Shown one piece after another: positions 3,544-32,148 of a stretch of DNA of 32,439 nucleotides. The position numbers and the translations under genes are program-made. Numbering within the stretch: position 1 is the stretch's first letter; each line of letters begins with the position of its first letter. The DNA lies in IMG/VR virus record IMGVR_UViG_3300025653_000144, positions 1 to 32,439 of that record; one strand, written 5' to 3'. The stretch is from a virus. Its lineage: Duplodnaviria; Caudoviricetes. The notes beneath the pieces are model-generated. The model made no database searches. It had not been told where the DNA came from and saw only the letters and a program-made list of their open reading frames with translations.

Positions 3544-5458
3544 AAACAAGCTTTGGCATCGGTCTCTGGAGATCGACAAACGGGCCATTGACGAAGAGTC
3601 TAGAACGGTTGAACTAGCATTTTCCTCTGAGTTCACCGGAGAGCGTTGGTATGGGACCGAGACATTGAGCCACGAGAGAAGCGCGGTTCGCCTTGATCGA
3701 ATCAATAATGGGGGCGCATTGCTTTTAGAGCATGACCGCAACGATCAGATCGGAGTCGTTGAGCGTGCGTGGATCGATGACGATAAAAAGGGAAGGGCTC
3801 GTGTTAAGTTTAGCAAGAGCGCACGAGGTGAAGAGATTTTCCAAGACGTGAAAGACGGTATCAGACAGTTGGTTTCTGTCGGGTATGTGATTCACGGTGA
3901 GAGCACCCAAAAGCTAGATGGAGGTCGGGAGGCCGTCACTGCTACTGACTGGGAGCCTTACGAACTGAGCTTGGTCAGCATCCCGTTCGACGACTCTGTG
4001 GGAGTCGGGCGAAAGATGGAAAACGAAACCACGGACAAAACTAATACTACTAAAACCATGTCTGATACTATCAAAGACCAGGCTGACAAGGCCACTCCTC
4101 CCGAGGCTCAAAAGCGTTCCGTGGAGGTGATCAACGAGCGTCCCACCGTGGACGCTAAGAAGGAGCGGGAAACTGCTATTAGCGCAGAACGTAGCCGTAT
4201 TGCACGCATTCAAGAGATTGCTGAGGCTTCCAAGTCTCGGGGAATCGTTCTTGATGCCAACAAAGCGATTGAGCGAGGAACTGATATCAATGAGTTTCAG
4301 TCCGAAGCCCTTGCTGCATTCACCAGCCGACATACCGACTACACCCCTGCCAACGATCTTTCCAAGAGTGAAAAGCGGGATCTCGCAAAATTCGATCTTT
4401 CCCGAGCCCTGCAATCCTGCATCGGAGAGCGGAAACTTGAAGGCATCGAGAAGGAAATCGTCACTGAAGGTTTTCGTGAGGCTAACGAGGCCGGAATCAA
4501 GCGAGGTGGCGGAATCATGCTTCCCGGCTTTTACGTCAATCGCGCCCAGCGTGACATGACTGCTACCGGGGGCACTGGTGGAGATCAAGGCGGAATGACC
4601 GTGGCTACTGAAAAGGCAGGTCTCCTCGATGACTTCTACAATGCTAACGTCCTCGCTCAAAGCGGTGCTACGGTTCTGACCGGGCTTACCAGCAATCTCG
4701 ACGTTCCTCGTTTGATTGCCGGAAGTGATCCCGCAGGCAAGGCCGAGAATGCCACTGCCGATGAGATCGCACCGACGACCGCTCAACTTGAGCTTTCGCC
4801 GCAACGTCTCCCGGGTTACGTCAACATCTCGAAGCAGCTTATCATGCAGAGTTCATCTGCGATTGAAGCGATTGTTCGCTCTAACGTGACTGCTCAGATG
4901 CTTGCCGTTCAGGAAGCCGCATTCTTCCACGGAACCGGAACCAACGAAGCCGAAGGTATCGCTGGAACCAATGGAATCGGAAGCGTTGTTGGTGGAGATA
5001 ACGGTGCTGCTCCTTCCTGGGAAGACATCGTTGATCTTGAAGAAGCAGTCGACGCCCAGAATGCTCTTGGTGGTAGCCTGTATTACTTCACCAACGGGCA
5101 AATCAAGAAGAAGCTCAAAGAGACTCCGCTCCAAGGATTGGGTGTTGAAGGTGCGTTCATCATCCCCCCGAACACTCGGAACGGAGAGATCGAACTGAAC
5201 GGATACCGGACTGCGTTTACCAACGCAATCAGCCGGACTCTCGACAAGGGGGATGCTACTGGAGAATGTTCAGCCATCTTCTTCGGGAATGCTTCCGATT
5301 ACTTCATCGGATACTGGGGTGGATTGATGCTTGACCTCGTCTCTGACGCTACCCTCGCTACGAAGGGACTCTACCGACTCGTCGGGGAGACCTACTACGA
5401 TGGCGGCGTGCAGCGTCCTAAGAGCTTTGCAGCAATGCTCGACGCTCTGGGAGCGTAA
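3518..5458 (+). CDS. Fused HK97-type prohead protease / scaffold / major capsid protein
   Basis: N-terminal protease motifs (VELAFSSE, LLLEHD, VSVGY, WEPYELSLVSIPFD), helical scaffold (AERSRIARIQEI), C-terminal HK97-fold capsid (GGMTVATE, NGYRTAFTN, IFFGN). Start at 3515 or 3518. Confidence 0.93.
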   Translation: MVTRKEIPKNKLWHRSLEIDKRAIDEESRTVELAFSSEFTGERWYGTETLSHERSAVRLDRINNGGALLLEHDRNDQIGVVERAWIDDDKKGRARVKFSKSARGEEIFQDVKDGIRQLVSVGYVIHGESTQKLDGGREAVTATDWEPYELSLVSIPFDDSVGVGRKMENETTDKTNTTKTMSDTIKDQADKATPPEAQKRSVEVINERPTVDAKKERETAISAERSRIARIQEIAEASKSRGIVLDANKAIERGTDINEFQSEALAAFTSRHTDYTPANDLSKSEKRDLAKFDLSRALQSCIGERKLEGIEKEIVTEGFREANEAGIKRGGGIMLPGFYVNRAQRDMTATGGTGGDQGGMTVATEKAGLLDDFYNANVLAQSGATVLTGLTSNLDVPRLIAGSDPAGKAENATADEIAPTTAQLELSPQRLPGYVNISKQLIMQSSSAIEAIVRSNVTAQMLAVQEAAFFHGTGTNEAEGIAGTNGIGSVVGGDNGAAPSWEDIVDLEEAVDAQNALGGSLYYFTNGQIKKKLKETPLQGLGVEGAFIIPPNTRNGEIELNGYRTAFTNAISRTLDKGDATGECSAIFFGNASDYFIGYWGGLMLDLVSDATLATKGLYRLVGETYYDGGVQRPKSFAAMLDALGA

Positions 5459-5741: not shown

Positions 5742-6055
5742 TGCAAACTGCACTTGCTCAATCTTTCGGTGATTCGTTTGAAGAGCACCTTGAAGACTTC
5801 GCAGTTTCAATCGTTATCAATTCCCAGACTATTCGGGCCGTTGTTAACGAATCCCAATTTGGCAGGGAACTGATGGAGGGAGGCTTCGCCGATGACTCTG
5901 ATATTGATGTGAAATTCCTACTCTCCGACCTATCGGCAATTCCTAGCCTTGGGGATCTCGTGACCTATCGAGATAGGAACTTTCGAGTTTCACGCCTAGG
6001 GATTCAACCTGGAGCCCTTGTCGGGGAGATTACTTGCCGACCGTCCAAGCGTTAA
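5741..6055 (+). CDS. Head-tail joining / head-closure protein (gpFII-like)
   Basis: 104 aa beta-rich, PSLGDLVTYRDRNFRV motif, position after capsid. Confidence 0.65.
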   Translation: MQTALAQSFGDSFEEHLEDFAVSIVINSQTIRAVVNESQFGRELMEGGFADDSDIDVKFLLSDLSAIPSLGDLVTYRDRNFRVSRLGIQPGALVGEITCRPSKR

Positions 6056-6663
6056 AGACGCTTCAGAAGCTCAATCAAGCCAGCGGTATCGGCTTTCAGG
6101 GCCTCAATCTCGTCTTCATCCATTGCGGGGATTGTCTTTCTTAGGATTGAAATCAGGCCGCGCAGATGGGGAACGTAGTTGTCCCTACCGAACTTTCTCT
6201 TTCTCTCCTCGTAAGCCTCGGGTGTGATGATCTTAGGATCATCTGGGAAGCATGAGATTGAAAGCTTAAGTAGCTTCTTAGGAGGGGCCTTGTCTAGCTT
6301 TGAAACGAACTCAAGCCATGCGTCCCGCTTGTCCTCGTTTGAGATCGTGGAGATTGCTTGGTGATGCTCAAAAGTCAGGGATGGAACCCTCTTCTCAATC
6401 GGGATTCTGCGGCAAACAGTGGCCAATGAGAGAAGGGATTGACGATCAACCCCCGTCAGTTTCTCAGCCTCAATCATCAATTCATTTGGAATCCTCTTTT
6501 TGAAATTGGTGCCACCGTAAACCAGCCAATCTCCGAGTGCCCATGAAAACCTTTTGGTGGCTTCTCCAAAGCGGTTTCCGATCTCTTGCCATTCCTCAAA
6601 GGGAAGCTCCCCTTGAAATTGAATCCCGACTTGGCCGGGAGTTTCGATAAGCTCTAAAGACAT
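6052..6663 (-). CDS. LmbU-family-like DNA-binding/regulatory protein
   Basis: LPFEEWQEIG, SWALGDWLVYG and TVCRRIPIEKRVPSLTFEHHQAI resemble the recalled LmbU pattern (FEEW, WxLGDWLxYG, LSFxHH). Confidence 0.7.
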   Translation of the reverse strand: MSLELIETPGQVGIQFQGELPFEEWQEIGNRFGEATKRFSWALGDWLVYGGTNFKKRIPNELMIEAEKLTGVDRQSLLSLATVCRRIPIEKRVPSLTFEHHQAISTISNEDKRDAWLEFVSKLDKAPPKKLLKLSISCFPDDPKIITPEAYEERKRKFGRDNYVPHLRGLISILRKTIPAMDEDEIEALKADTAGLIELLKRL

Positions 6664-7037
6664 TGTTCAATCAGTTGTTTTAGTTTTTTGGAACGAGCAA
6701 TTCGGCAATTCTCTTGCCCCGAAAAATTCCGCATAGCTCGAACAGGCGGAATTCCTAAAAGATTGCAGAGATCTACGCATCTCCGACTAACGGTTGCCCG
6801 GGTAACCATGTTATCCCTTGCGATCTGCGCCATTGATTTCCCTTGATAGCCAATTCCCGATATAAGAGATAGGCATTCAATCGAAAGGGCAGGATGGGGG
6901 CATTTATGAAGAATCCCGATCAGGGTTCGCATCATCATTAACTCTGGTGAATCCATCTTGGGTTGCTCTTCTTGGATTTCTTCAGGCATGACAACCGGGA
7001 CCCTTTCGCCATTCTCCCAATAAAATCTTTCAGACAT
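6654..7037 (-). CDS. Helix-turn-helix protein (sigma region 4-like HTH)
   Basis: GKSMAQIARDNMVTRATVSRR is a clear HTH. ATG at 7037 preferred; overlaps the LmbU-like gene by 10 nt. Confidence 0.65.
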   Translation of the reverse strand: MSERFYWENGERVPVVMPEEIQEEQPKMDSPELMMMRTLIGILHKCPHPALSIECLSLISGIGYQGKSMAQIARDNMVTRATVSRRCVDLCNLLGIPPVRAMRNFSGQENCRIARSKKLKQLIEQCL

Positions 7038-7079
7038 GTAATAAAAATTACCCTTCATTTGACAAATTAGCAATTCTTA

Positions 7080-20357: not shown

Positions 20358-21143
20358 ATGAATAAACTGACACAATTAAAGACCGTTCTTTCATCTGACA
20401 AGATGCAGGAGCAATTCAGGGCCGCACTGCCCAAGCATCTGACAGCCGAGCGATTCGGACGGGTGGCTATCACTGCGCTAACGAGGACACCCAAGCTTGC
20501 TGACTGCACGCAAGAGAGCTTCTTCAAGTGCCTGCTGGATCTCTCAGCGATGGGCCTTGAGCCTGACGGGAGACGCGCACACTTGATCCCATACGGCAAG
20601 GAGGCGACTCTGGTGATTGATTACAAGGGCCTGGTCGAACTGGTCCGGAGATCCGGCGACGTTGCCAAGATCCACGCTGATGTAGTCTGCGAGAATGACA
20701 CTTTCAAGCATTCGATGGGCGAGGTGCAGGAGCATTCCTACGATCTCAAGAACGAACGGGGCGAACCGTATGCCGTTTACGCTCAAGTCACCCTCAAGGA
20801 TGGCTCAGTGCAGGCAGAGATCATGTCGAAGGCAGAGGTTGAACAGATCCGCCAGAAGTCGAGAGCCGGGAACTCTGGCCCTTGGAAAGACCACTGGAAC
20901 GAGATGGCGAAGAAGACTGCTTTCCGGCGACTCACCAAGTGGTTGACGCTTTCTCCCGAGATCATGGATGCGGTGACTAAGGCCGAGGAAACTGAGTTCA
21001 AGGGGATGCGTGATGTCACCCCCGAGCCATCCAAGGAGAAGACCCTAGAGTCCCTAGAAGCACTCGTGACCCCTCCCGAGGTTGAGGCCGAGCCATCATC
21101 AGAGGATCTCTGGGATAAAGAGGAACAGGAGGTGTCGAAATGA
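20358..21143 (+). CDS. recT: RecT-family single-strand annealing protein
   Basis: ALPKHLTAERF, GLEPD, LIPYG, IDYKGLVELVRRSG and PWKDHWNEMAKKT motifs. Confidence 0.95.
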   Translation: MNKLTQLKTVLSSDKMQEQFRAALPKHLTAERFGRVAITALTRTPKLADCTQESFFKCLLDLSAMGLEPDGRRAHLIPYGKEATLVIDYKGLVELVRRSGDVAKIHADVVCENDTFKHSMGEVQEHSYDLKNERGEPYAVYAQVTLKDGSVQAEIMSKAEVEQIRQKSRAGNSGPWKDHWNEMAKKTAFRRLTKWLTLSPEIMDAVTKAEETEFKGMRDVTPEPSKEKTLESLEALVTPPEVEAEPSSEDLWDKEEQEVSK

Positions 21144-21976
21144 TTGCTCACGCCGAAAAAGAACTGTTCCCCGATTGCAAGATTCACTTGATGGAGCAAC
21201 GAACTGATGAATGGTTTGAGGCTCGTAAGGGAAAACTTACCGGCTCTCAATTCGGGACATGGCTAGCCGAGAAGCCAGAATGCCGCTATACAGCATCAGA
21301 ACTGAGGCAGCAGATCTCTGAGCTTGTGGGTCAGGAGCCACCTAAAAACATGACCAAAGCCGCTCTCCTAGGTGAGTGCCAGGATCTAGGGATCAACCTC
21401 CCTAAGACCTACACGAAGACCACCGAGGAAGCGAGGAAGAAGGCAATCGCCAAGATCATCGGGCAGATGTCATCCTGCATTGTCCCCGACGAATGGGGAG
21501 TTGATCCAGATGGGCCGCCGCCGAGAAACCGAGGTCAATGGGCAATCTGGAACGGAATCAAGATGGAGTCAGAAGCTGAACAAGCTTTCGAGGTAGAGAC
21601 CGGCGAAGTGATCCGCAAGGTGGGATTCTGCACTCACTATTCTCAATTCGTTGGAGTCAGTCCAGACGGTCTGATTCGCGGCAAAAACATCGGCTTTGAA
21701 GGAAAGGCGCCATTGCCCGAAACCCATGCTCTCTACCTGTTAAATGGAGAACTACCAGAGCAATACAAGGCTCAGGTTCATGGCTCGATGGCGGCAACGG
21801 GGGCTGATGCCTGGTGGTTTCAAAGCTACTGCCCGGGGCTTCCTACCCTAAGGATCTTGGTTGAGCGTGATGAGTTCACGGAGCGCATGGAAACTGGGAT
21901 TAATCTTTTTGCCGACCATCTACGGCAGACGACTCTGGAGATCATCGGCATGATGAAAGGAGGTCGAAGTGAGTGA
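21140..21976 (+). CDS. YqaJ-like (lambda-exonuclease family) nuclease
   Basis: EQRTDEWFEARKGKLTGS, GVSPDGLI, FEGKAP and YKAQVHGSM; coupled to recT. Confidence 0.9.
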   Translation: MIAHAEKELFPDCKIHLMEQRTDEWFEARKGKLTGSQFGTWLAEKPECRYTASELRQQISELVGQEPPKNMTKAALLGECQDLGINLPKTYTKTTEEARKKAIAKIIGQMSSCIVPDEWGVDPDGPPPRNRGQWAIWNGIKMESEAEQAFEVETGEVIRKVGFCTHYSQFVGVSPDGLIRGKNIGFEGKAPLPETHALYLLNGELPEQYKAQVHGSMAATGADAWWFQSYCPGLPTLRILVERDEFTERMETGINLFADHLRQTTLEIIGMMKGGRSE

Positions 21977-22295
21977 CCACAAGCACACGCCGGGGCCGTG
22001 GGAGGTTTATTTAACGGGAGACAGTGTTTGCATCAAAAAAGGCAAAAAAAAATTGCCTCCGTTATCGATTTATCTATCAATTTTTGAGCGCAAAGCAAAC
22101 GCCCAACTCATCGCAGCCGCGCCGGAGTTGTTGGCGGCCTTGGAGACCGTTTGGTCTGTCATCGAAGATGCGCAGGGGCCGACAAGAAATTCATCAAATG
22201 AACTCGTCTCTTGGGAGGAAATAGCAAAGTCGGTTCAAAACGCAATCGCAAAAGCAACCGGAAAGGAGGCGCAGAATGAAACCGACTGCTTCTAA
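21969..22295 (+). CDS. Conserved phage protein (HTPGPW / NAQLIAAAP family)
   Basis: KHTPGPW, ANAQLIAAAPELLAALE and AIAKATG motifs. Confidence 0.8.
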   Translation: MSDHKHTPGPWEVYLTGDSVCIKKGKKKLPPLSIYLSIFERKANAQLIAAAPELLAALETVWSVIEDAQGPTRNSSNELVSWEEIAKSVQNAIAKATGKEAQNETDCF

Positions 22296-22636
22296 GACCA
22301 TGAGTGATAACACTAAATCCGATTGGTATTATTTTCGAGCAGAGAACTTTGCTTGCCCTCCGGCCATCATTGATAACAGGACAGGAAAGACGATTTGTGA
22401 GTTTGATTTAGCAGATACTCCGAGATGCGAAATAGATGATAACGCCCAACTCATCGCAGCCGCTCCTGACATGCTGGAGGCTTTGGAGGGGATTCTCACG
22501 CTGATCCAAGAGTCACATGGAGTCTTCGGTTTTCATCTCAACGGTGATCTTTCTGACTGGTCGGAGCATCAAGACGACATCAACTTAATTCAAAACGCAA
22601 TCGCCAAAGCAACCGGAAAGGAGGCGCGGAATGAAA
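22234..22636 (+). repeat. 48-bp direct repeat (22234-22281 and 22589-22636)
   Basis: TTCAAAACGCAATCGC(A/C)AAAGCAACCGGAAAGGAGGCGC(A/G)GAATGAAA, 2 mismatches. A 23-bp identical repeat also lies at 22098-22120 and 22441-22463. Confidence 0.9.
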
Positions 22637-22644
22637 ACGATTGA
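22276..22644 (+). CDS. Paralogue of preceding NAQLIAAAP-family protein
   Basis: DNAQLIAAAPDMLEALE, NAIAKATG; SD AAGGAGG upstream. Confidence 0.75.
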   Translation: MKPTASKTMSDNTKSDWYYFRAENFACPPAIIDNRTGKTICEFDLADTPRCEIDDNAQLIAAAPDMLEALEGILTLIQESHGVFGFHLNGDLSDWSEHQDDINLIQNAIAKATGKEARNEND

Positions 22645-23554: not shown

Positions 23555-23775
23555 GTGACCAGATCGATGCGAAATGGACAAACTTCCCGGTGTGCCCTTA
23601 TTGCGGGACAGAAAACCATGATTGGTGGGATAAGACTATCCTTAGAAATGATGGAGATACAGACTATTGTAAATGTGGATCATGTGGGGAAGAGTATCAT
23701 GTCACCCTGAGAGTTTCCTCTAAGTTCGCGACTGAGAAAATTTCACAACGTGGAGAGGAGTCCCATAGTGAGTGA
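23551..23775 (+). CDS. Small zinc-ribbon protein
   Basis: CPYC...CGSC pairs; GTGA overlap. Confidence 0.7.
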   Translation: MSDQIDAKWTNFPVCPYCGTENHDWWDKTILRNDGDTDYCKCGSCGEEYHVTLRVSSKFATEKISQRGEESHSE

Positions 23776-24106
23776 AGAATACACCGATACGACGGAGACC
23801 GATAATTTAGAGATCAGCATGGATGAGCAGGACTACGTCCCAGGAGACAAGCTGAGGCCATACGCCGATCTTTGCCGAAAGCTCGAACGAGAGCGGGACG
23901 ATTGGAAAGAGGAAGCCAAGCAAGAGAAGGCTAGGCGAGAGCGATCTGAGTCAAATTCAAATTATCGACGGAAGATAATTCAGAATATGATCGAGGAACT
24001 TCGTGCGATCACCCGTCAACGCGACGAGATGACCAAGCAGTTAAACAAGGCGATGGCCGAGAACCTTGAGCTTAGGGCGAACGCTCAAGAGCAGCCACCT
24101 GCGTAG
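23768..24106 (+). CDS. Coiled-coil hypothetical protein ending inside attC-like site a
   Basis: SD GGAGAGGAG before GTG 23768; TTETD...CRKLERERD; C-terminus ANAQEQPPA encoded by the hairpin. Confidence 0.7.
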   Translation: MSEEYTDTTETDNLEISMDEQDYVPGDKLRPYADLCRKLERERDDWKEEAKQEKARRERSESNSNYRRKIIQNMIEELRAITRQRDEMTKQLNKAMAENLELRANAQEQPPA

Positions 24107-24134
24107 CAGGTTGGTCTGCCGCGCCTTGTTCTCT
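24076..24134 (-). repeat. attC-like site a (59 bp)
   Basis: + strand: GGCGAAC-6 nt-GAGCAGCCACCTGC-GTA-GCAGGT(T)GG(T)CTG(C)CGC-5 nt-GTTCTCT; bulged bases on the right arm. Confidence 0.75.
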
Positions 24135-24170
24135 GCCGATTAGACGCCCCCGAAAATAAATGCACTTTTC

Positions 24171-24217
24171 TTTGATTAATTGCTTGCACGTAATCAAAAG
24201 GGGTGTAGTATAAAAAC
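24171..24217 (+). promoter_or_regulatory. Sigma70-type leaderless promoter with operator palindrome (copy 1)
   Basis: TTGCAC 24184-24189, 16 nt, TAGTAT 24206-24211, ATG 6 nt later; TTTGATTA-N12-TAATCAAA straddles the -35. Confidence 0.7.
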
Positions 24218-24481
24218 ATGAACAACACGACACCGCTTCACGACCCCATCATTAACGCCTCGATCACCACTATCCTCCGCTCCGACGACCGCGACTTCGC
24301 AATCGGACTTGCCGAGATGATCAACACCTTCCTCGCCGACGACGGCTTCGCCTTCCGCTTCGACACCGATGCGGCAACCCTCATGGACATCAAGATTGCC
24401 GCTAAGTCCTTTATCGCTACCTTCCTCCCCGTTGACCTCAACGCGGAGTGGGCAAACAAGCCGACCCAAATGGGCATTTAA
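24218..24481 (+). CDS. Hypothetical cargo protein of module 1
   Basis: 87 aa, C-rich codon usage distinct from neighbours, directly after promoter. Confidence 0.7.
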   Translation: MNNTTPLHDPIINASITTILRSDDRDFAIGLAEMINTFLADDGFAFRFDTDAATLMDIKIAAKSFIATFLPVDLNAEWANKPTQMGI

Positions 24482-24482
24482 G

Positions 24483-24656
24483 ATGAGAGGCGGCAAACGA
24501 GAGGGAGCGGGGCGCAAGCCCTGCAACACTCCCCGCGAGACAATCACAGTGCGGATCGAGCCGGAACACGCCGAACGATTCAGGGCGATCTGCGCGGCAA
24601 AGGGGAGATCGCAAGCGCAGCAAATCACCGAATGGATAAAACGCGCCCGATTGTAG
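24483..24656 (+). CDS. RGGKREGAGRKP-type ribbon-helix-helix-like DNA-binding protein (copy 1)
   Basis: MRGGKREGAGRKP...TITVRIEPEHAERFRAICAAKGRSQAQQITEWI; paralogue at 28779. Confidence 0.8.
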   Translation: MRGGKREGAGRKPCNTPRETITVRIEPEHAERFRAICAAKGRSQAQQITEWIKRARL

Positions 24657-24658
24657 GC

Positions 24659-24768
24659 AGAGAACGACTGAGGTATGCCATGGCGCGAGCAACCAGAAAG
24701 GAAACGACAATGAGTGAAAACAATGAACAACCCAGCGACTTGCCGTTGGCATCACCGTCTTGTTCGCC
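24659..24768 (-). repeat. attC-like site b (110 bp, contains SD and start codon)
   Basis: AGAGAAC-GACTGA-GGTATGCCA...TGGCAT(C)ACC-GTCTT-GTTCGCC. Confidence 0.75.
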
Positions 24769-24991
24769 TTGTTTTGTTGTCCTTGCGTTCCGATACGGAG
24801 GACACAGCAACACATTTCCGATTGGTGTCTTCCCTTCCCGCGAGGAAGCAGAGTCTGCTGCTCGTGCCCACCGATATTTTAGGGGCGGCAAATATGACCA
24901 CCGTATCTATGAGTTTGAATTCGGAAAGGCAAACGATGATGTGGGACACGCTTGCAACAACCGCCCTTGTATTGAGGCGAACGAGAAATGA
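24710..24991 (+). CDS. Hypothetical cassette protein
   Basis: SD AGAAAGGA and ATG 24710 inside site b; PIGVFPSREEAE motif; ends EANEK in site c. Confidence 0.7.
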   Translation: MSENNEQPSDLPLASPSCSPCFVVLAFRYGGHSNTFPIGVFPSREEAESAARAHRYFRGGKYDHRIYEFEFGKANDDVGHACNNRPCIEANEK

Positions 24992-25032
24992 ACAGGAACC
25001 GCGAAGAGGCTTCCTGATTCGAGATGTTGAAC
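24976..25032 (-). repeat. attC-like site c (57 bp)
   Basis: GGCGAAC...GAACAGGAACC...GG(C)TTCCTG(A)TTC-GAGAT-GTTGAAC; 33/39 identical to site e. Confidence 0.7.
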
Positions 25033-25042
25033 TAAAAAAATC

Positions 25043-25348
25043 ATGAATGAAAACAAACAAAAGGCATATCAAATTGTCGAAATACTCTCGCGAGTATCCG
25101 CAAAATGGGAGGTTAGTATTGACGAGATCCTATCTCCAACTAGGGGATGCGGATCGGCTCCCGAGGCTAGGTCGGTCGCAATGTATCTAGTTCAGGATGA
25201 GCTTGATATTCAGATGCTGAAGATCGCCAAAGTCTTCGGAGGCCGAGATCCTTCGACTGCTGGAAAAGCGGTTTCAAGGATTCGCAAAAGGATGGAACTC
25301 GATTCTGAATTTAGGGAAAAGGTAGAAAGCCTTTTTGAGAAGGCTTGA
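25043..25348 (+). CDS. Stand-alone DnaA domain IV-like HTH protein
   Basis: ARSVAMYL...IAKVFGGRDPSTAGKAVSRI resembles the DnaA C-terminal signature (RQIAMYL...FGGRDHTTV). Confidence 0.8.
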   Translation: MNENKQKAYQIVEILSRVSAKWEVSIDEILSPTRGCGSAPEARSVAMYLVQDELDIQMLKIAKVFGGRDPSTAGKAVSRIRKRMELDSEFREKVESLFEKA

Positions 25349-25401
25349 AAAGCTAGGCTAATCTCGATGCCTTTAAATCGAGATAATAACAACACGAGAA
25401 A

Positions 25402-26283
25402 ATGAAAAAACAAATTGAATGCCTCGATTCTAAAAACGGGGAAAACTGGCACCTGTTTCATGGTGATTGCGTGGAGGTTTCTTCACAACTTCCTGACGAG
25501 TCTATTGATCTTTCGATCTATTCTCCTCCTTTTGCTTCGCTTTATGTCTATTCTGATAGCGTTGCCGATATGGGTAATTGCAAAGATGATGATGAGTTCT
25601 TCGATCAGTATCGATTCATGATTAAAGAGAAATTCAGGATCACGAAGCCGGGCCGTCTCTCATGCGTTCATTGCATGGATCTCCCTTCGTCAAAGGGAAT
25701 GCATGGCTATATCGGACGCCGTGATTTCTCTGGGAAAATCATCAGGGAACATATCAAAGCGGGATGGATATTCCATTGTCGGGTGACTGTCTGGAAAGAT
25801 CCAGTCGTTGAGATGCAAAGAACAAAGGCGGTAGGACTGCTTCACAAAACCATCAAGAAGGATAGTTCAAGGTCACGCATGGGGAATCCTGACTATCTTC
25901 TCGTCTTTGTTAAACCGGGAGAAAACAAAGAGCCTATTTCACACACTGCCGAGGAGTTCCCGGTTGACCAGTGGCAGAAATGGGCTTCTCCGGTATGGAT
26001 GGACATCAACCAGACAAACGTGCTAAACGGCAGAGATGCTAGGACCGATAAAGATGAAAAACACATTTGCCCTTTGCAGTTAGACTTCATCTTGCGATGC
26101 CTGATTCTTTGGAGTAATCCCGGGGATGTTGTATTTTCTCCATTTTCTGGCATTGGGAGTGAGGGCTTTGTTTCAATTCAAAATGGCAGGAAATTTGTAG
26201 GAACAGAGCTAAAAGAATCTTACTTCAAACAGGCTTGTCGTTTCCTTGAAAAGGCCGAATCAGAAAAGGAGGTTTTGCTTTGA
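25402..26283 (+). CDS. DNA methyltransferase, N4-C/N6-A beta class
   Basis: HGDCVE, catalytic YSPPF before SAM-binding VFSPFSGIGSEG; KHICPLQLD. Confidence 0.92.
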   Translation: MKKQIECLDSKNGENWHLFHGDCVEVSSQLPDESIDLSIYSPPFASLYVYSDSVADMGNCKDDDEFFDQYRFMIKEKFRITKPGRLSCVHCMDLPSSKGMHGYIGRRDFSGKIIREHIKAGWIFHCRVTVWKDPVVEMQRTKAVGLLHKTIKKDSSRSRMGNPDYLLVFVKPGENKEPISHTAEEFPVDQWQKWASPVWMDINQTNVLNGRDARTDKDEKHICPLQLDFILRCLILWSNPGDVVFSPFSGIGSEGFVSIQNGRKFVGTELKESYFKQACRFLEKAESEKEVLL

Positions 26284-27626
26284 ATTACCAATCATTATTG
26301 GAAAGGAAGGCCAATCAAGTATCCATCGGGAAAACCGTAATTGATTGCAATCCTCATCCCAACGCGAAGCCACATCAGGCCGATTGTCTTGATATGCTTT
26401 TGAGCGTTAAGCGGGGAGCGGCTTTTCTTGATACTGGGCTAGGCAAGACCTTTCTCCAGCTAGATTGGGCAAGGCATATCCCTGGGGACGTTCTAATTGT
26501 AACGCCTCTTGCCGTAGCTCAACAGACAATCAGGGAGGCTAAAAAGCTTCTAGGAATGGAGATAGGCTTTTCATCAGATGGTGAGATTTCAAACAGAGTC
26601 ACTGTTACAAATTACGAAAGGATTCATCATTTTGATTGCTCCAGATTTCATGGGGTGGTTCTAGATGAAAGCTCTATTTTGAAGGGGCAGAACTCGAAGA
26701 CAAGAAAGCAACTAACTGAATCATTTAAGGATGCAGAGTTCAAGCTTTGTTGCACTGCGACTCCAGCCCCTAACGACTACACCGAGATAGGGAACCATTC
26801 CGAGTTCCTAGGGATCATGCCTCAAATGGAAATGCTTATGCGCTGGTTTGTCCATGACTCGGCCAATACTGCGGACTGGAGACTCAAGAAACACGCCGTG
26901 AAAGACTTCTGGGAATGGGTGGCAAGCTGGGCCGCCTGTGTTTCCAAGCCTTCTGACCTAGGGCATGATGACAGCGGATACGATCTCCCCCCGCTAACGA
27001 CTCACACTCATCTTTCTGAAGCTCCTTTAGATAAGCCGGAGGGGATGCTTTTTGATCTCCCCCAGGTTTCAGCAACGGGGCTCCATAAATCGGCTCGAAA
27101 GACTGCGGAGGAGAGATGTAAGAAGCTTTCTGATATGGTCAACGAATCGGATGAACCGTGGATCGTATGGTGCGAATCAAACAATGAGAGTGAGATGCTT
27201 GCCAAGCTCATCCCTGATGCGGTAGAGGTCAAAGGAAGCGATACGTTAGCAAAAAAGGAAGAGAACCTCTTAGCTTTCACCGACCAGAAAGCCAGGGTGA
27301 TTGTCAGCAAAGCTAAGATCTGCGGGTTTGGAATGAACTGGCAACATTGCCGGAAAATCGCATTTTGTTCAATCTCATATTCCTATGAGAGATTCTATCA
27401 AGCGGTCAGGAGATCTTGGAGATTTGGTCAAACTAAGCCTGTCGAGGTTCATGTTTTTATCGCTGATTCAGAGCTTGGAGTTTGGCGAGCGATTGAGAAC
27501 AAGACTAAGGGACATGACCAGATGAAAAAGGAGATGAGACACGCCGTCTTCAAGAAAGGAACCGACCTTCTGAGGAAGGTCGACTACAAGCCAAACTCGA
27601 AAAGCGAAATCCCTTCATTCTTATGA
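26280..27626 (+). CDS. SNF2-like superfamily 2 helicase
   Basis: DTGLGKT, VLDESS, TATPAPND, GFGMNWQHC and QAVRRSWRFGQ. Confidence 0.9.
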   Translation: MNYQSLLERKANQVSIGKTVIDCNPHPNAKPHQADCLDMLLSVKRGAAFLDTGLGKTFLQLDWARHIPGDVLIVTPLAVAQQTIREAKKLLGMEIGFSSDGEISNRVTVTNYERIHHFDCSRFHGVVLDESSILKGQNSKTRKQLTESFKDAEFKLCCTATPAPNDYTEIGNHSEFLGIMPQMEMLMRWFVHDSANTADWRLKKHAVKDFWEWVASWAACVSKPSDLGHDDSGYDLPPLTTHTHLSEAPLDKPEGMLFDLPQVSATGLHKSARKTAEERCKKLSDMVNESDEPWIVWCESNNESEMLAKLIPDAVEVKGSDTLAKKEENLLAFTDQKARVIVSKAKICGFGMNWQHCRKIAFCSISYSYERFYQAVRRSWRFGQTKPVEVHVFIADSELGVWRAIENKTKGHDQMKKEMRHAVFKKGTDLLRKVDYKPNSKSEIPSFL

Positions 27627-27733
27627 AGACACTCGAAAAGAAATTCCGTTCGATAGATGCTGAATCTTGGAATGAGTCATCGAGGCCGATAGTATAGATA
27701 TTGACGAGGGAGTGAATGCCCGAACCAACCTTG

Positions 27734-27801
27734 AGCCTCTTGATGGGCGCAGATTCATTCACCGGGGAAACCCGTTCTGCGTTCCTCAAGAGGCTTTTTT
27801 T
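27734..27801 (+). terminator. Long structured leader / terminator-like hairpin just before the initiator start
   Basis: AGCCTCTTGA (27734-27743) pairs with TCAAGAGGCT (27786-27795); inner GGGCGCAGA/TCTGCGTTC; CGGG-GAAA-CCCG tetraloop; T7 run. Confidence 0.7.
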
Positions 27802-27805
27802 ACCA

Positions 27806-28537
27806 ATGATCAAAATCAACAAATGGAGCGAGACTTTTGAGAATGCCGATACGAGAAAGCGGCAGCGGCTGGGTTGGTTTCTGTCTCCTTCTGGGTGTGA
27901 CTCAAAGGGATACCGGAGGCTCATGAAGAAGGGTGAGGCCGGAGTCCTCGCATTTGGAGTTTATCAGGCCCTCTGTCAGCTTACGGCTACTGGGACCGCA
28001 AAGGGGAGGGGGCAATTCTTGCATTCGGACGGGAAATCAATGGATCTCGAAGACCTGTCTGATCTAACCAGGATGCCGGAAAAGGTGATCTCCGATAGCC
28101 TGCCATTGCTGGCAGATGTTGGGTGGGTTGAGGCAACTACCGGCAGAAATCTGCCACCTACTGCGGATTGTCTCCCACCTACTGCGGGTTTTGTTAAAGG
28201 AGAAGGAGAAGGAGAAGGAGAAGGAGAAGGAGAAGGAGAAGGAGAAGCTTTTACCCCGACACAGGCTATCGCCTGGTCTGTGGCCGAAGGATGGACAGGA
28301 ATTACTGAGAAGGATTTCCAAGACTGGACGGAAGCCTATCCAGCTTGTGACCTCAAACGACAGATCGCAGCATCCTCAGAATGGCTCAGATCAAATCCAG
28401 CCAAGGCCAAGAAAAAGCAATGGAGACGGTTTCTGACCAACTGGCTATCCAGATCTCAAGAACGAGGTGGAGACGCCCAGTCCAATTCCACCAAAGCACC
28501 CGCCCACGTTAAAATCTTCACCCCAGACGATCTTTGA
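27806..28537 (+). CDS. Replication initiator (lambda O-like architecture)
   Basis: MIKINKWSETFENADTRK N-terminal domain, repeat-containing linker with (GE)8, C-terminal WTEAYPACD...WLRSNP...RFLTNWLSR; upstream of DnaB-like helicase. ATG 27806 preferred over 27716. Confidence 0.75.
   Translation: MIKINKWSETFENADTRKRQRLGWFLSPSGCDSKGYRRLMKKGEAGVLAFGVYQALCQLTATGTAKGRGQFLHSDGKSMDLEDLSDLTRMPEKVISDSLPLLADVGWVEATTGRNLPPTADCLPPTAGFVKGEGEGEGEGEGEGEGEAFTPTQAIAWSVAEGWTGITEKDFQDWTEAYPACDLKRQIAASSEWLRSNPAKAKKKQWRRFLTNWLSRSQERGGDAQSNSTKAPAHVKIFTPDDL
28133..28246 (+). repeat. Iteron-like 21-bp period repeats and (GGAGAA)8 tract; candidate origin
   Basis: CCACCTACTGCGG at 28154 and 28175, degenerate copy at 28133; GGAGAA x8 at 28199-28246. 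Confidence 0.7.
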
Positions 28538-28567
28538 ACAGAACCCTCGGAAAGTTTTTTCACTTTC

Positions 28568-28614
28568 TTTGAATTAATGCTTGCAAGAAATCAAATGGGG
28601 TGTAATCTAAAAAC
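28568..28614 (+). promoter_or_regulatory. Sigma70-type leaderless promoter with operator palindrome (copy 2)
   Basis: TTGCAA 28581-28586, 16 nt, TAATCT 28603-28608, ATG 6 nt later; TTTGAATT-N12-AAATCAAA. Confidence 0.7.
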
Positions 28615-28782
28615 ATGAAAACGAACTACACCGAAATCACCGAAGCCAACGCAACTCCAGCAAACATCGACGCCGCTCTCAAATTCGCGGGAAAGGTAAT
28701 CTGGGAAGATACAGAAAAAGTCCGCGAAGCTCGCAAGGCAGGAGTTGACCGCATGATGGCAAGAATCCGCGCCGGAAAATGA
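28615..28782 (+). CDS. Hypothetical cargo protein of module 2 (55 aa)
   Basis: Hand translation MKTNYTEITEANATPANIDAALKFAGKVIWEDTEKVREARKAGVDRMMARIRAGK. Confidence 0.7.
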   Translation: MKTNYTEITEANATPANIDAALKFAGKVIWEDTEKVREARKAGVDRMMARIRAGK

Positions 28783-28958
28783 CAGCAGGAGGCAAACGCA
28801 AGGGAGCGGGGCGAAAGCCTCGTTCTCATCCTCGGGAAGCCGTTACTGTGCGGCTGGAACCCGAACACGCCGAAAAGTTCCGCGCCATCTGCAAGGCAAA
28901 GGGCCGGAGCCAATCGGCGCAAATCACAGAATGGATTAAACGAGCGAACAGAACATGA
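28779..28958 (+). CDS. RGGKRxGAGRKP-type ribbon-helix-helix-like protein (copy 2, 59 aa)
   Basis: Hand translation MTAGGKRKGAGRKPRSHPREAVTVRLEPEHAEKFRAICKAKGRSQSAQITEWIKRANRT; ATGA overlaps at both ends. Confidence 0.8.
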   Translation: MTAGGKRKGAGRKPRSHPREAVTVRLEPEHAEKFRAICKAKGRSQSAQITEWIKRANRT

Positions 28959-30247
28959 AACCACCACCAACACTCGAAAAGACGGAGAAGGCCGTTCTCA
29001 GCGTCATCCTCCAAAGAGAAAAGGGATGGGACGAGACTCCCCTCGATGAGAGCCTCTTTTACTCCGAGGCTCACAAGCAGATTTTCCGACTATCTCAAGA
29101 GGTGGATCACGCTATGGATGAGGTGCAGCTTGTGGAGATCGGGCTCAAGAGGGGAGTCCTTTCTGAGATGGGAGGTGCACCGGCACTGCTCGAAATCTAC
29201 CACGACTATGTTCCCCGAGGCACATTCCTCAAAGACGTTGAAAGACTCCGATTGTGCGCTGCTCGCCGGCTAGCGATCAAGGCAGCCCGTCAAATCGAGG
29301 AGTCTGCATACGACCTCGGGGATGATACGTTTCTGGAACACCTTGGAGAGCCGATCACCTACGTCATCGAGGTGGCATCGGCATCGGCACCCGAGAAATC
29401 GACGAAACAGGTCTTCCAAGACGTTTTGGCTGATTTCAAGTCTCTTCTGGAGGGGAGGACTAAAGCGATGGGATGGGAAGTTTCATTACCAAGCCTCACA
29501 GCCGCTTTGAGAGGATTTTCCCAGAATCGGGTCTGCGTAGTCTCAGGATACCCTTCAAGCGGTAAGACGCTCCTCGTTGGGCAATTCCTGGTCGATCTCG
29601 CTAAACAGGGGGTACCCTCGATGCTGATGAGTTTCGAGATGCCCCGGGACCAACTAGGGAAGCGTCTCATCGTCACCAATGGGCGATTTAATCCTGAGGT
29701 GATCTACGATCCCATTCGCAATGGTCAGCGACAAGGGAGAGACAAGCCCTCAAAATCCGATCTCCTCAAAGTAAAGGAATCCTACCGGCAGATCACGGAT
29801 TCCCCACTCTACCTCGATGAGGCCACTGGTCCCACCATTGACCAGGTCTGCGCTATGATCCGACGAGCCCATCGAAAGCACGGGGTGATTGCCTTCGGCA
29901 TCGACTACCTCCAGTTGATCCGATCACCGGGAGCCGGGAGCAAGGAGCAAGAGCTAACCACTATCTCTCACAAGCTTCAGGCCATCATGAAAGAACTGGG
30001 ATTGCTAATTTTCCTGCTTTCCCAGCAGAACAAGGACGGGGATACGAAATACGCCACCACCACCATTGAAGATGCCGATTACGTCTTATCAATCCAGCAG
30101 GTTATGGATAAGGAAAGCGTTGACTTCAAAAAGGTTACCGGTATTACCATCAACAAGGACCGTCACACAGGACGCTCAGGATGGACTTTCCCGATAGAAA
30201 GACACCCAGACACCCTCTACTTCAAAGAAACGCCATTTCAAAAATGA
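28955..30247 (+). CDS. dnaB: DnaB-like replicative helicase
   Basis: EKAVLS...FYSEAHKQIF N-domain, GYPSSGKT Walker A, SFEM, IDYLQLI, LLSQ and IEDADYV. Confidence 0.92.
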   Translation: MKPPPTLEKTEKAVLSVILQREKGWDETPLDESLFYSEAHKQIFRLSQEVDHAMDEVQLVEIGLKRGVLSEMGGAPALLEIYHDYVPRGTFLKDVERLRLCAARRLAIKAARQIEESAYDLGDDTFLEHLGEPITYVIEVASASAPEKSTKQVFQDVLADFKSLLEGRTKAMGWEVSLPSLTAALRGFSQNRVCVVSGYPSSGKTLLVGQFLVDLAKQGVPSMLMSFEMPRDQLGKRLIVTNGRFNPEVIYDPIRNGQRQGRDKPSKSDLLKVKESYRQITDSPLYLDEATGPTIDQVCAMIRRAHRKHGVIAFGIDYLQLIRSPGAGSKEQELTTISHKLQAIMKELGLLIFLLSQQNKDGDTKYATTTIEDADYVLSIQQVMDKESVDFKKVTGITINKDRHTGRSGWTFPIERHPDTLYFKETPFQK

Positions 30248-30585
30248 AAAGCCTATACTGGGATAAAGAGAGCATAGAAAGCGCGAGAAAAACCTGCCAA
30301 CACCTTTGGCAGCCGTGGAGGAAAGAAACCGGTTACATTTGGCGGTCTTGCGTAAATTGTGGGCTAAGGCAGCAAGAGTCATTCAGCAAGCCCGGATTCT
30401 TTGCCGCTAAATGCCCCGCTTGTGGATGGAAGGGAAGCAGCGAGGATTGCAAAGGCGGTAAAGAGCAGGCCAACACGGGCGACATTGAACCCGCTTTGTG
30501 CCCTGAGTGTTACCAATACGGCGATGAGAGCGAGGTTGAGGAGATTTTAGAAGCGAACGCCCAATGTCCAATCACACAGCCATGA
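30244..30585 (+). CDS. Cys-rich zinc-binding protein ending inside site d
   Basis: CQH, CVNC, CPAC and CPEC; ATGA overlap with dnaB. Confidence 0.7.
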   Translation: MKSLYWDKESIESARKTCQHLWQPWRKETGYIWRSCVNCGLRQQESFSKPGFFAAKCPACGWKGSSEDCKGGKEQANTGDIEPALCPECYQYGDESEVEEILEANAQCPITQP

Positions 30586-30685
30586 GAAAACTATACCTAG
30601 CACCAGAAACAATGGAAGGACTCAAGGAGATCGCCAAAGCCGCAGAGGGCAACGAGGCTCTGTTGAGTGCTACTGATTGTTCGCC
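30552..30685 (-). repeat. attC-like site d (134 bp, degenerate; contains start codon)
   Basis: AGCGAAC...TCACACAGCC...GGCTCTGTTGA...TGATT-GTTCGCC; imperfect arms. Confidence 0.55.
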
Positions 30686-30854
30686 TCGTTGCGATAATTG
30701 CCGATGGGGGATGGAGCTAGAGGAGCGATACGACCAGCGACACTGCATCAACCAAGATAGCCGCGAGGCATTCGGCAACGTGGAGGCATCATTCTACTGC
30801 CAATTCTTTGAGGCTAACAGAAAAAAGAACAGGGACCCCAAAGGGGCTTCCTGA
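30582..30854 (+). CDS. Small Cys-rich cassette protein
   Basis: ATG 30582 overlaps upstream stop; CDNCRW...C...FYCQFFE. Confidence 0.7.
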   Translation: MRKLYLAPETMEGLKEIAKAAEGNEALLSATDCSPRCDNCRWGMELEERYDQRHCINQDSREAFGNVEASFYCQFFEANRKKNRDPKGAS

Positions 30855-30869
30855 TTCGATGTGTTCAAA
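30812..30869 (-). repeat. attC-like site e (58 bp)
   Basis: GGCTAAC...GAACAGGGACCCC-AAA-GGGG(C)TTCCTG(A)TTC-GATGT-GTTCAAA. Confidence 0.7.
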
Positions 30870-30896
30870 TTCTACAAATCAACCAAAACAAAAACC

Positions 30897-31238
30897 ATGA
30901 GTAACAAATACGAAATGACGGGCACGATTGTGCAAATCAGCGAGACGCAGAGCTTCGCCAGCGGATTCCAGAAACGGGAATTTGTAATCGAGACCGGGGG
31001 GCAATACTCCAACTCTGTGAAGTTCGCCTTCGTGAAGGACAAGTGCGAGATCCTCGACCGCTACCAAGTGCGGGACAAGGTCACGGTCTCATTCAACATC
31101 AAAGGAAATGAATACAAGGGCCGCCACTACGTCGATCTTCAAGCTTGGCGCATCGAGCGCGAGGATAACCAAGCCCAGCCAGCGACCGCACAGGCACCAG
31201 CGCAGGGGACCGAGGAGAATGACGAAATTCCTTTTTAA
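30897..31238 (+). CDS. DUF3127-family SSB-like OB-fold protein
   Basis: GFQKREFVIET...VSFNIKGNEYKGRHYVDLQAWRIE with acidic DEIPF tail; A-rich initiation region before ATG 30897. Confidence 0.85.
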   Translation: MSNKYEMTGTIVQISETQSFASGFQKREFVIETGGQYSNSVKFAFVKDKCEILDRYQVRDKVTVSFNIKGNEYKGRHYVDLQAWRIEREDNQAQPATAQAPAQGTEENDEIPF

Positions 31239-31292
31239 CGACTGAGGACAGGCGCGAGCGCAGCGAAGTCGCTCTGCTCCGACTTGTTCTCC
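31233..31292 (-). repeat. attC-like site f (60 bp)
   Basis: TTTTAAC-GACTGA-GGACAGGCG...CGC(T)CTG(C)TCC-GACTT-GTTCTCC. Confidence 0.75.
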
Positions 31293-31302
31293 CTTTTTGA
31301 TT

Positions 31303-31524
31303 ATGAACGCACAAGAAACAATAGACTATTGGATCGGCGCAACTGCCGCCCATGAAACAACCATTGCCAGCCTACTAGAGGAACGGGCGAAACTTCAGCG
31401 TGATTTAGAAGTAGCGAGGAACTATGTCCGCACGGAATGGAAGGCTGGCAGACTTCAAGGCGCTATGTCCGACGAGGAGATCAGAGTTTTTCAGGAGAAC
31501 GCCAAGGATCACACATCGCCATGA
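31303..31524 (+). CDS. Hypothetical coiled-coil cassette protein
   Basis: ORF between sites f and g; stop inside site g. Confidence 0.6.
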   Translation: MNAQETIDYWIGATAAHETTIASLLEERAKLQRDLEVARNYVRTEWKAGRLQGAMSDEEIRVFQENAKDHTSP

Positions 31525-31624
31525 AAACAGTATCACCATTGAACGACCACATGATTTTAGATGCCCCTGAATCGGAGGATCACCAGCCGCCTGATGGCGA
31601 TTGTCGTGCATTCGCTTGTTCTCC
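31494..31624 (-). repeat. attC-like site g (131 bp, contains start codon)
   Basis: GGAGAAC-GCCAAG-GATCACACATCGCCAT...ATGGCGA(T)TGT(C)GTG(C)ATT-CGCTT-GTTCTCC. Confidence 0.75.
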
Positions 31625-31793
31625 TCAGATTGTCCAAATCCTGATCGCGCCGAACGACGCAATATGGCAAGGCCGCATGATGGGTTTGGATTCAAGCGGG
31701 GCGGTTCACTCCGTCAATCCTGACGGTAGGTGGGAGCCGTTCGTCCCGCCTCTAAATTTTCAGGAGAACAGCCGAGAACACCCGCCCCGGTAG
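31521..31793 (+). CDS. Hypothetical cassette protein
   Basis: ATG 31521 overlaps upstream TGA; reads ACSP through the right arm of g and ends QENSREHPPR in h. Confidence 0.65.
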   Translation: MKTVSPLNDHMILDAPESEDHQPPDGDCRAFACSPQIVQILIAPNDAIWQGRMMGLDSSGAVHSVNPDGRWEPFVPPLNFQENSREHPPR

Positions 31794-31819
31794 GGATTGG
31801 GTGGTTTTAACTGTTCGGA
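31763..31819 (-). repeat. attC-like site h (57 bp)
   Basis: GGAGAAC-AGCCGA-GAACACCC...GGGTG(G)TTT-TAACT-GTTCGGA. Confidence 0.7.
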
Positions 31820-31869
31820 AATTCCTAATACTTCGCGATGATCTACTTCAAAGAAAAACAATCTACATT

Positions 31870-32148
31870 ATGAGACTAGACGCTTACGCAAACCCCGACA
31901 ATGAAACAATCCTTGTTGCCCTTGGTATCAAGGAAGATGAAATTCCGCGCTTCCGTGGCGCGATGATCGAGGATGGCAAAGTCCTTATCCACACCCGAAG
32001 CGGGGGAGGAAACCGTGATTGGCTAGCAGATGGCAACGCGATGCTTGCCTCCAACGAATACTACATTGAAGATGCCGATGATGACTTCGACTGCACGTAT
32101 GCAAATTTTTGGTTCCGCATTCCCGATTCTTTGCAGAACAGCCAATGA
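31870..32148 (+). CDS. Conserved hypothetical phage protein
   Basis: IPRFR...IHTRSGGGNR...DDDFDCTYANFWF; ends LQNSQ across a lone GAAC core. Confidence 0.7.
   Translation: MRLDAYANPDNETILVALGIKEDEIPRFRGAMIEDGKVLIHTRSGGGNRDWLADGNAMLASNEYYIEDADDDFDCTYANFWFRIPDSLQNSQ

Follow-up and report, generated by a model that had tools for sequence, protein, structure and literature searches.

In the canonical cassette of class 1 and Vibrio integrons, a gene stands upstream of its own attC recombination site and is read in the same sense as that site. attC sites have been described as imperfect palindromes of ~55–141 nt whose core triplets are AAC and GTT (PMC7370490). Qi 2023 (PMC9892861) reported clusters of attC sites in phage genomes that lack an integrase and found that IntI1 recombined five of six tested phage sites, with the bottom strand preferred; the main text of that paper gives TJE1 and PH101 as typical arrays and mentions no antisense cargo. 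Here we describe two comparable arrays in a 32,439-nt phage contig (IMG/VR record IMGVR_UViG_3300025653_000144, Caudoviricetes; hereafter the window), which is an estimated 84% complete and whose DNA occurs mostly in freshwater metagenomes. Our analysis suggests, with a probability of about three in four, that these integrase-less arrays of the early operon consist of six integron-type cassettes (A, B, D, E, F and G) whose attC sites lie opposite in sense to the genes, and that the cassettes are likely excised as circles and inserted by an integron integrase (IntI) of the host. Three of the eight sites (a–c) lie within 24076–25032 (array 1) and five (d–h) within 30552–31819 (array 2), in agreement with the definition of a CALIN (cluster of attC sites lacking an integron integrase) as at least two same-strand attC sites within 3–4 kb. 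No tyrosine recombinase (PF00589) was found in four records, namely the window and three related ones (of which the relative G001 is 92% complete), while all 14 control genomes were positive; thus there is no intI nearby, as in other CALINs. By the same result the window is not a complete integron with intI and attI in cis (attI was not separately sought).

The eight sites are all on the minus strand: a at 24076..24134 (59 nt), b at 24659..24768 (110 nt), c at 24976..25032 (57 nt), d at 30552..30685 (134 nt), e at 30812..30869 (58 nt, 82% like site c), f at 31233..31292 (60 nt), g at 31494..31624 (131 nt) and h at 31763..31819 (57 nt). They were scored by a purpose-written scorer that expects AAC, 5 nt, an 8-nt L'' box with an extra fourth base, a loop, a 7-nt L' box, 5–8 nt and GTT, which we take to be the canonical attC layout and which agrees with the aadA7 site. 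The aadA7 site was used as printed in the supplement of Qi 2023 (PMC9892861). The minus strand scores higher as a canonical attC in all eight sites, with a 5/8/7/6–8 nt layout and 5, 7, 7, 5, 7, 6, 6 and 6 of 7 L-box pairs for sites a to h (one of those in g is a wobble). With lengths of 57–134 nt, AAC and GTT cores, an extrahelical L base opposite the cleaved AAC and an unpaired central spacer, the sites have the features of attC. They share with class 1 and Vibrio cassettes the R and L boxes, the extrahelical base, the AAC crossover triplet and the matched ends after integration; the GTTRRRY core of that type is not matched, the boxes being mostly of the GTTCGCC/GTTCTCC type seen in Verrucomicrobial arrays. 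At a stricter threshold, the scanner returned seven matches in the window versus 0, 0, 1 and 1 on shuffled windows, and a first hairpin scan made without polarity had returned 13 plus-strand matches, which include six of the eight sites. Neither folding energy nor purine skew settles the polarity. It has been reported that the recombined strand has extra bases on the arm opposite AAC (Nivina 2016, PMC5027507); as the extra L-box base here lies opposite the plus-strand AAC, we infer that the recombinogenic bottom strand corresponds to the plus (coding) strand. All cargo open reading frames (ORFs) are on the plus strand, the reverse of a gene upstream of its own attC in the same sense. Inverted-integrase ('reverse') integrons (10.1101/2025.02.12.637893) are alike in the word 'inverted' alone, since as presented there it is intI that is turned relative to the array, whereas in the window it is the genes that face against attC, and intI was not found.

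The preliminary description of the locus had proposed that the ends of each inter-site unit between 24128 and 32139 are complementary, with the GTT box opening a unit matching the AAC box that closes it. Six units bear this out: the box pairs sit where they had been placed, at 24128/24656, 24762/24975, 30679/30810, 30863/31233, 31286/31494 and 31618/31762, and score 10/10, 8/8, 8/9, 6/7, 7/7 and 8/8. The corresponding cassettes, all on the plus strand, are A (24082..24664, 583 bp, including site a), B (24665..24981, 317 bp), D (30558..30817, 260 bp), E (30818..31238, 421 bp), F (31239..31499, 261 bp) and G (31500..31768, 269 bp). In a permutation test of complementarity within versus between units, based on the first 7 nt of the boxes with the core GTT left out, the six units have 22/24 complementary positions against a mean of 13.7, a value reached by 4 of 720 permutations. 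The preliminary description had left out two other units, which do not qualify: the 5.6-kb c–d unit matches at 0/4 positions and the h–i unit at 2/4, and both were rejected as cassettes, circle closure of c–d taking its R-box pairs from 4 to 3. The result remains significant with c–d included (22/28, 16 of 5040 permutations) and with both included (24/32, 52 of 40320). The proposed range likewise holds the six cassettes but also takes in the 5.6-kb backbone and an insert that is not bounded by attC. As had been noted, the two boxes of one hairpin match poorly beyond the core in sites a, b, c, e, f and h (2, 2, 1, 0, 0 and 1 of 4); the match is higher in d (3/4) and g (4/4), and the total of 13/32 is under the permutation mean of 16.4.

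Closing the units in silico at AA|C, which proved to be the correct cut point, changes the R-box pairs from 5, 5, 6, 3, 3 and 7 to 7, 7, 6, 6, 7 and 7 for units a, b, d, e, f and g, with a gain in dG of 6.3, 5.8, 0.5, 1.6, 2.9 and 0 kcal/mol. Taken alone, the hairpins are at best slightly more stable than shuffled sequences (z −2.1 to +1.2). The complementary R boxes at the unit ends are those of a canonical cassette, and they are replicated independently in five units present only in G001, where 19/20 end positions match (2 of 120 permutations). Such complementarity arises whichever side a hairpin belongs to, and the side was therefore tested separately.

G001 aligns over 24,552 of the 32,439 window bases at 93.7% identity. 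In array 1, identity is lost at the left box of a and comes back just after the AAC of c, with three other units in between. In array 2, identity begins at the left box of e, ends past the left box of f and returns at the left box of h. Five of the six array boundaries thus fall on a left-box AAC (a, c, e, f and h), and at all five of these att boundaries the hairpin body stays linked to what lies downstream of it: sites a and f are replaced in G001, as is cassette D, and the bodies of c, of e (from AAC on) and of h are kept. A unit that differs opens with the C of a left-box AAC and closes with the AA of the following one, so that the hairpin moves ahead of its gene. Since each hairpin belongs to its downstream gene, the minus strand is where the sites lie, and the genes run antisense to attC. 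Cassette E, which encodes a DUF3127 single-strand DNA-binding protein (30897–31238; PF11325, phrog_4932), is the only cassette common to the window and G001, its right GTT box being mutated in G001. Sites c and h are fixed and head arrays 1 and 2, respectively, in attC polarity; site c stays with the downstream DnaA_C-type helix-turn-helix (HTH) gene.

Metagenomes were compared for 4 of 24 runs as assembled contigs, covering 15 of 29 joints. A contig of run X23 (depth 26) links 24076 to 24983 via a 7-letter piece that corresponds to the G001 left box plus the start of site c, and it shows what appears to be an empty allele of array 1 in which the body of site c is conserved. Together with this joint, the five G001 boundaries place the crossover at AAC, with the exact base ambiguous within shared letters. 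A second joint in X23 connects the end of the ribbon-helix-helix (RHH) cassette to the body of h at GAGAAC.

Homologous cassettes also occur in other phages. A phage contig (L041), which encodes a DNA polymerase and matches these regions nowhere else at the DNA level, carries an inverted array of its own that includes homologues of cassettes B and G, and the ends of its cassette B show a compensatory change. Two further loci (L046 and L049) share the scaffold of cassette A, with a body related to that of site a, the same leader, promoter-like stretch and small ORF, and a small DNA-binding protein, which is of the HTH_3 family there versus RHH in the window. The ends of this scaffold are 10/10 and 11/11 complementary in L046 and L049, with a compensatory end change in L046. 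Searched against viral contigs, the ORFs of cassettes G and A gave near-identical records only. The AAC-triplet swaps in the relative, the empty allele in one contig and the homologous cassettes with compensatory end changes in unrelated phages together indicate cassettes and not terminators, so that the units behave as integrated circular cassettes and the preference for mobility in the preliminary description is upheld.

Genes and sites also fit each other in translation. The ORFs of cassettes B (24710–24991, 93 aa), D (30582–30854) and G (31521–31793) begin in the long loops of sites b, d and g, and all three traverse the right-box GTT as Cys-Ser; loops d and g carry ATGA stop/start overlaps. 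Six ORFs run across a left box; all of them translate its AAC as Asn and terminate 9–36 nt further on, and the other two ORFs end at the box. The ORF of cassette B stops in site c and that of cassette F occupies 31303–31524. The backbone ORF 5' of array 1 (23750..24106, plus strand), kept in G001 as far as the box, continues across the left box of site a and has its stop codon within this site. The ORF between DnaB and site d (30244..30585, plus strand), which is not in G001 and has no attC at its 5' side, has its stop in loop d, overlapping the next ATG. In a family alignment of cassette B (27 of 37 matches plus the query, 28 sequences), CS precedes the core in 18/28 and N follows it in 22/28 by a count made by eye. 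With a fixed frame, starts in loops and stops in the next site, an incoming cassette would neither break nor strand its neighbours. The sites would thus double as translation joints, the long loops giving a start codon, and an incoming gene would read AAC as Asn and terminate within the next hairpin. In G001 (L036 4560–5252, minus strand), a backbone ORF crosses the first site in frame and continues as a fusion into the gene of the first cassette; the L box holds an ATG in the same frame.

How unusual this polarity is was assessed with one degenerate attC pattern, which gave 13 viral loci and at least 126 distinct bacterial loci. Orientation was assigned by ORF coverage, and the count was limited to units with at least 3/4 end matches, that is 89 of 124 bacterial and 9 of 15 viral pattern units (35 and 6, respectively, fell below 3/4). 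Among the matches listed, bacterial units are 72 sense, 3 antisense and 14 unclear, so that bacterial arrays of all taxa are sense in 72 of 75 called units; viral units are 2 sense, 5 antisense and 2 unclear (Fisher p 4e-5, units within an array not being independent). Counted by locus, the bacterial ones are 31 sense with 4 ties, and the viral ones 1 sense, 4 antisense and 1 tie. Both viral sense units belong to a bacterial-type-looking array (L044). A set of 21 DUF3127 loci (L005–L025) was excluded from the count, their units being poor with a mean end match of 1.1/4. Rescoring of the phages of Qi 2023 gave sense sites for TJE1 and, for MW202573, antisense in two of three high-confidence units with one unclear. 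In the CALIN of MW202573 (L043 901–3738), the attC sites are antisense to the annotated genes.

The boxes of the window resemble those of Luteolibacter and Haloferula arrays, and IntI scored over the cut-off in four of five such genomes. The likeness extends to the box family (GAAC-AAG.. on the left, GTTCGCC/GTTCTGC-type on the right), to the mixture of ~58-nt and ~125-nt sites and to the matched cassette ends. Unlike the window, the Verrucomicrobiales integrons have IntI in cis, and their sites are more uniform and better paired. The portal protein was searched in 401 genomes from the order to which the Haloferula record belongs, presumably Verrucomicrobiales, and gave two matches, at 63% and 59%. 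One of them is in a genome (G239) with an integrated prophage (terminase 68%, portal 62%) that carries an inverted array, whose two units have 8/8 ends and a loop start. Next to a truncated IntI, this genome also has sense cassettes with boxes of the same family, and the prophage has its own phage-type integrase, which no IntI model matched. In another prophage region (G221), no convincing array was found in 80 kb. In a Luteolibacter integron (L106), whose contig also carries a full IntI at a distance of 650 bases, sense bacterial cassettes stand together with one antisense RNA_ligase gene that starts in an attC loop and whose unit ends are GTTCAGT/ACTGAAC. The inverted RNA-ligase cassette of this integron (2413–3276) is accompanied at the far end (4412–4783) by an oppositely oriented attC that is entered by a phage-like ORF. 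Long Verrucomicrobial attC loops (L090 1837–1963, L106 1025–1154) carry a purine-rich stretch and an ATG on the bottom strand, and it is possible that such loops in chromosomes are a ready-made start for antisense genes.

The arrangement proposed here is that the cassettes would excise as circles and insert at other attC sites, with a host integron integrase working on the coding strand and the fixed sites c and h serving as entry points in place of attI. The likely enzyme is a host IntI acting in trans, probably of Verrucomicrobiales, as judged from the box family and the arrays beside IntI. If an ordinary bacterial cassette inserted here, its gene would point against the operon. Expression would thus be confined to inverted cassettes, which would keep the pool mostly on the phage side.

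Several observations weigh against this arrangement. The hairpin bodies in L041 differ from those of b and g, identity spanning only from GTT to AAC, and the N-terminal leaders vary among the close cassette B homologues (28 aligned). The strict rule that a body travels with its gene therefore fails over longer times, distant homologues having other bodies and leaders; rare top-strand events or Red-type exchange could be the source of body replacement. The sixth boundary with G001 coincides with the DnaB stop, a position at which a site is present in G001 and an extra ORF in the window, and a 303-bp insert behind array 2 sits at ATGA. The empty allele is one contig, whose short side of 24 letters is under the caution threshold of 30 letters, and no circle back-joint at unit ends was seen among the 15 of 29 joints in assembled contigs of four runs. 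The orientation caller errs, since at least one of the two L106 antisense calls seems wrong and a true antisense unit was missed. Plus-strand folding beats minus-strand folding in only three of the eight sites, purine content is near background, and sites a and d pair at only 5/7 in the L box. With regard to the host, the portal search was confined to one order and had no control order, IntI was over the cut-off in none of the four genomes with the closest portals, and the cassette B family gave two weak matches only in the 401 genomes.

The alternative that survives best, which we nevertheless consider improbable, is that the sites are relics of attC that now provide short homology for the RecT and YqaJ proteins of the phage, genes being swapped between phages without circles. 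The window does encode RecT and YqaJ (20358..21976, plus strand; PF03837, PF09588), a Red-type recombination system that is a rival driver of shuffling. The exchange of bodies relative to genes in distant homologues fits this, as does the homology-driven mosaicism suggested by the non-att insert at ATGA and by backbone gene swaps. However, a single triplet marks five boundaries and only a few of the surrounding bases are shared, and new units keep matched ends (19/20) and compensatory changes, which homology exchange does not need. A somewhat smaller chance is left for real cassettes moved by a different tyrosine recombinase of the host or of a helper element. The lack of an integrase in cis, the four portal-matched genomes in which IntI stays under the cut-off and the phage-type integrase of the G239 prophage would all agree with such an enzyme; but that integrase matches no IntI model, box motifs and spacing match the attC arrays of genomes with IntI, and one IntI-linked array includes an inverted cassette.

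Still less probable is the capture, as a block, of ordinary bacterial cassettes in which a gene is followed by its own coding-strand attC, as in TJE1 with its sense sites. End complementarity fits either polarity, and the L041 comparisons leave the body not tied to the downstream gene. However, the minus strand fits better in 8/8 sites, the cargo is phage-type (the single-strand DNA-binding protein), genes begin within the upstream hairpin, and the body goes with the downstream sequence at all five att boundaries with G001, which already contradicts a block of this kind. Finally, the view that the hairpins are terminators or RNA-processing signals with end matches by chance, to which their position between genes of one operon and the choice of six units by eye might lend support, has almost no chance and is refuted as their main role, as the complementarity is significant even with the omitted units and replicated in G001, ORFs run through the sites, and a plus-strand terminator-like match overlaps site h only (17 matches in the window against 16.2 in shuffles).

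Cassette A holds a promoter-like stretch, an 87-aa ORF and an RHH ORF (24218–24481 and 24486–24656, plus strand; PF23807 RHH_10, E 7e-7). The promoter-like stretch (~24186–24213) failed a promoter scan, and terminator and promoter counts in the window are at or below those of shuffles. The 87-aa ORF has no Pfam, PHROGs or NCBIfam match and no usable Atlas match, and the only PDB match of the RHH protein is ParG, a weak one. A paralogous module is present at 28564–28958; both it and the module of cassette A (24167–24656) consist of a promoter-like stretch, whose −35 region is covered by a 7-bp inverted repeat, a small ORF and an RHH gene, and only the module of cassette A lies within a cassette. 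This layout is reminiscent of anti-CRISPR/Aca operons. Instead of the second RHH module, G001 carries a Mom-family gene (PF25680).

The 303-bp insert (31842..32144, plus strand) is absent from G001, is bounded by ATGA and has an attC-like half box at its end (32133–32145). It is not inserted at an att crossover. A copy, at 75%, of the 3' end of DnaB opens the insert, which is skipped or replaced in contigs of runs X23, X14 and X9.

Profile scans of 53 ORFs and of 29 ORFs of the window matched terminase, lambda-type portal, capsid, amidase, RecT, YqaJ, methylase, helicase, DnaB and the DUF3127 single-strand binding protein, and the plus strand carries all early genes. The inter-array backbone (25033..30551, plus strand), with its 0/4 complementary ends, comprises the HTH gene, the DNA methylase, an SNF2-type helicase and DnaB, and is not a cassette. 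Within it, G001 has distant homologues of the methylase and helicase (window 25402–27626) with a breakpoint inside the methylase gene, and a GAAGGA hexamer run (28189–28254) encodes an (EG)n linker of a presumed replication initiator. RecT (window 20358–21143) is swapped in G001 for a different annealing-type gene with conserved flanks. Two tandem phrog_1273 paralogues with 55-nt and 48-nt repeats (21969–22644) are both missing from G001. The structural module includes two minus-strand genes (6052–7073), one of which weakly matches an LmbU-family regulator. A scan of the window against Rfam gave no match at E up to 1, and there was no RNA dataset among the listed datasets that contain window DNA.

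The footprint of end complementarity is textbook knowledge, and attC clusters in phages are known from Qi 2023. Taken together, the cassettes set against their sites in a locked frame, the swaps in a relative that are exact to the triplet, the single-contig empty allele and an inverted cassette in a host integron amount to a well-supported novelty within this known kind. Turnover between relatives, an empty site and start codons within sites do not feature in the parts of Qi 2023 (PMC9892861) that we consulted, and no description of antisense, frame-locked phage cassettes was found in the literature searched, which mostly leaves subscription journals outside its coverage. Pipelines that accept only same-strand genes upstream of attC with an overlap of less than 50 nt (PMC7370490) would miss or mis-assign inverted cassettes. 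Cassette formation was listed as open in a 2021 review (PMC8618304), and the same gene with different hairpin bodies provides a handle on this process. A wider proposal, which we put forward tentatively and regard as less probable than not being so, is that phages of environmental bacteria run a parallel cassette system on the host integrase, in which attC stands ahead of the gene as a translation module with the start in its loop and the stop in the next site, any boxed phage gene is mobile, bodies are exchanged independently of genes and cassettes leak into host integrons. If this were true, phage early operons would be a birthplace of new cassettes, and the origin of cassettes would become directly testable. 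The cassettes described here would offer a site-specific route by which the early regions of phages become mosaic gene by gene, and comparison of close relatives resolves its junctions to the triplet; an enzyme with which bacteria store anti-phage cassettes may also be shuffling the genes of phages.

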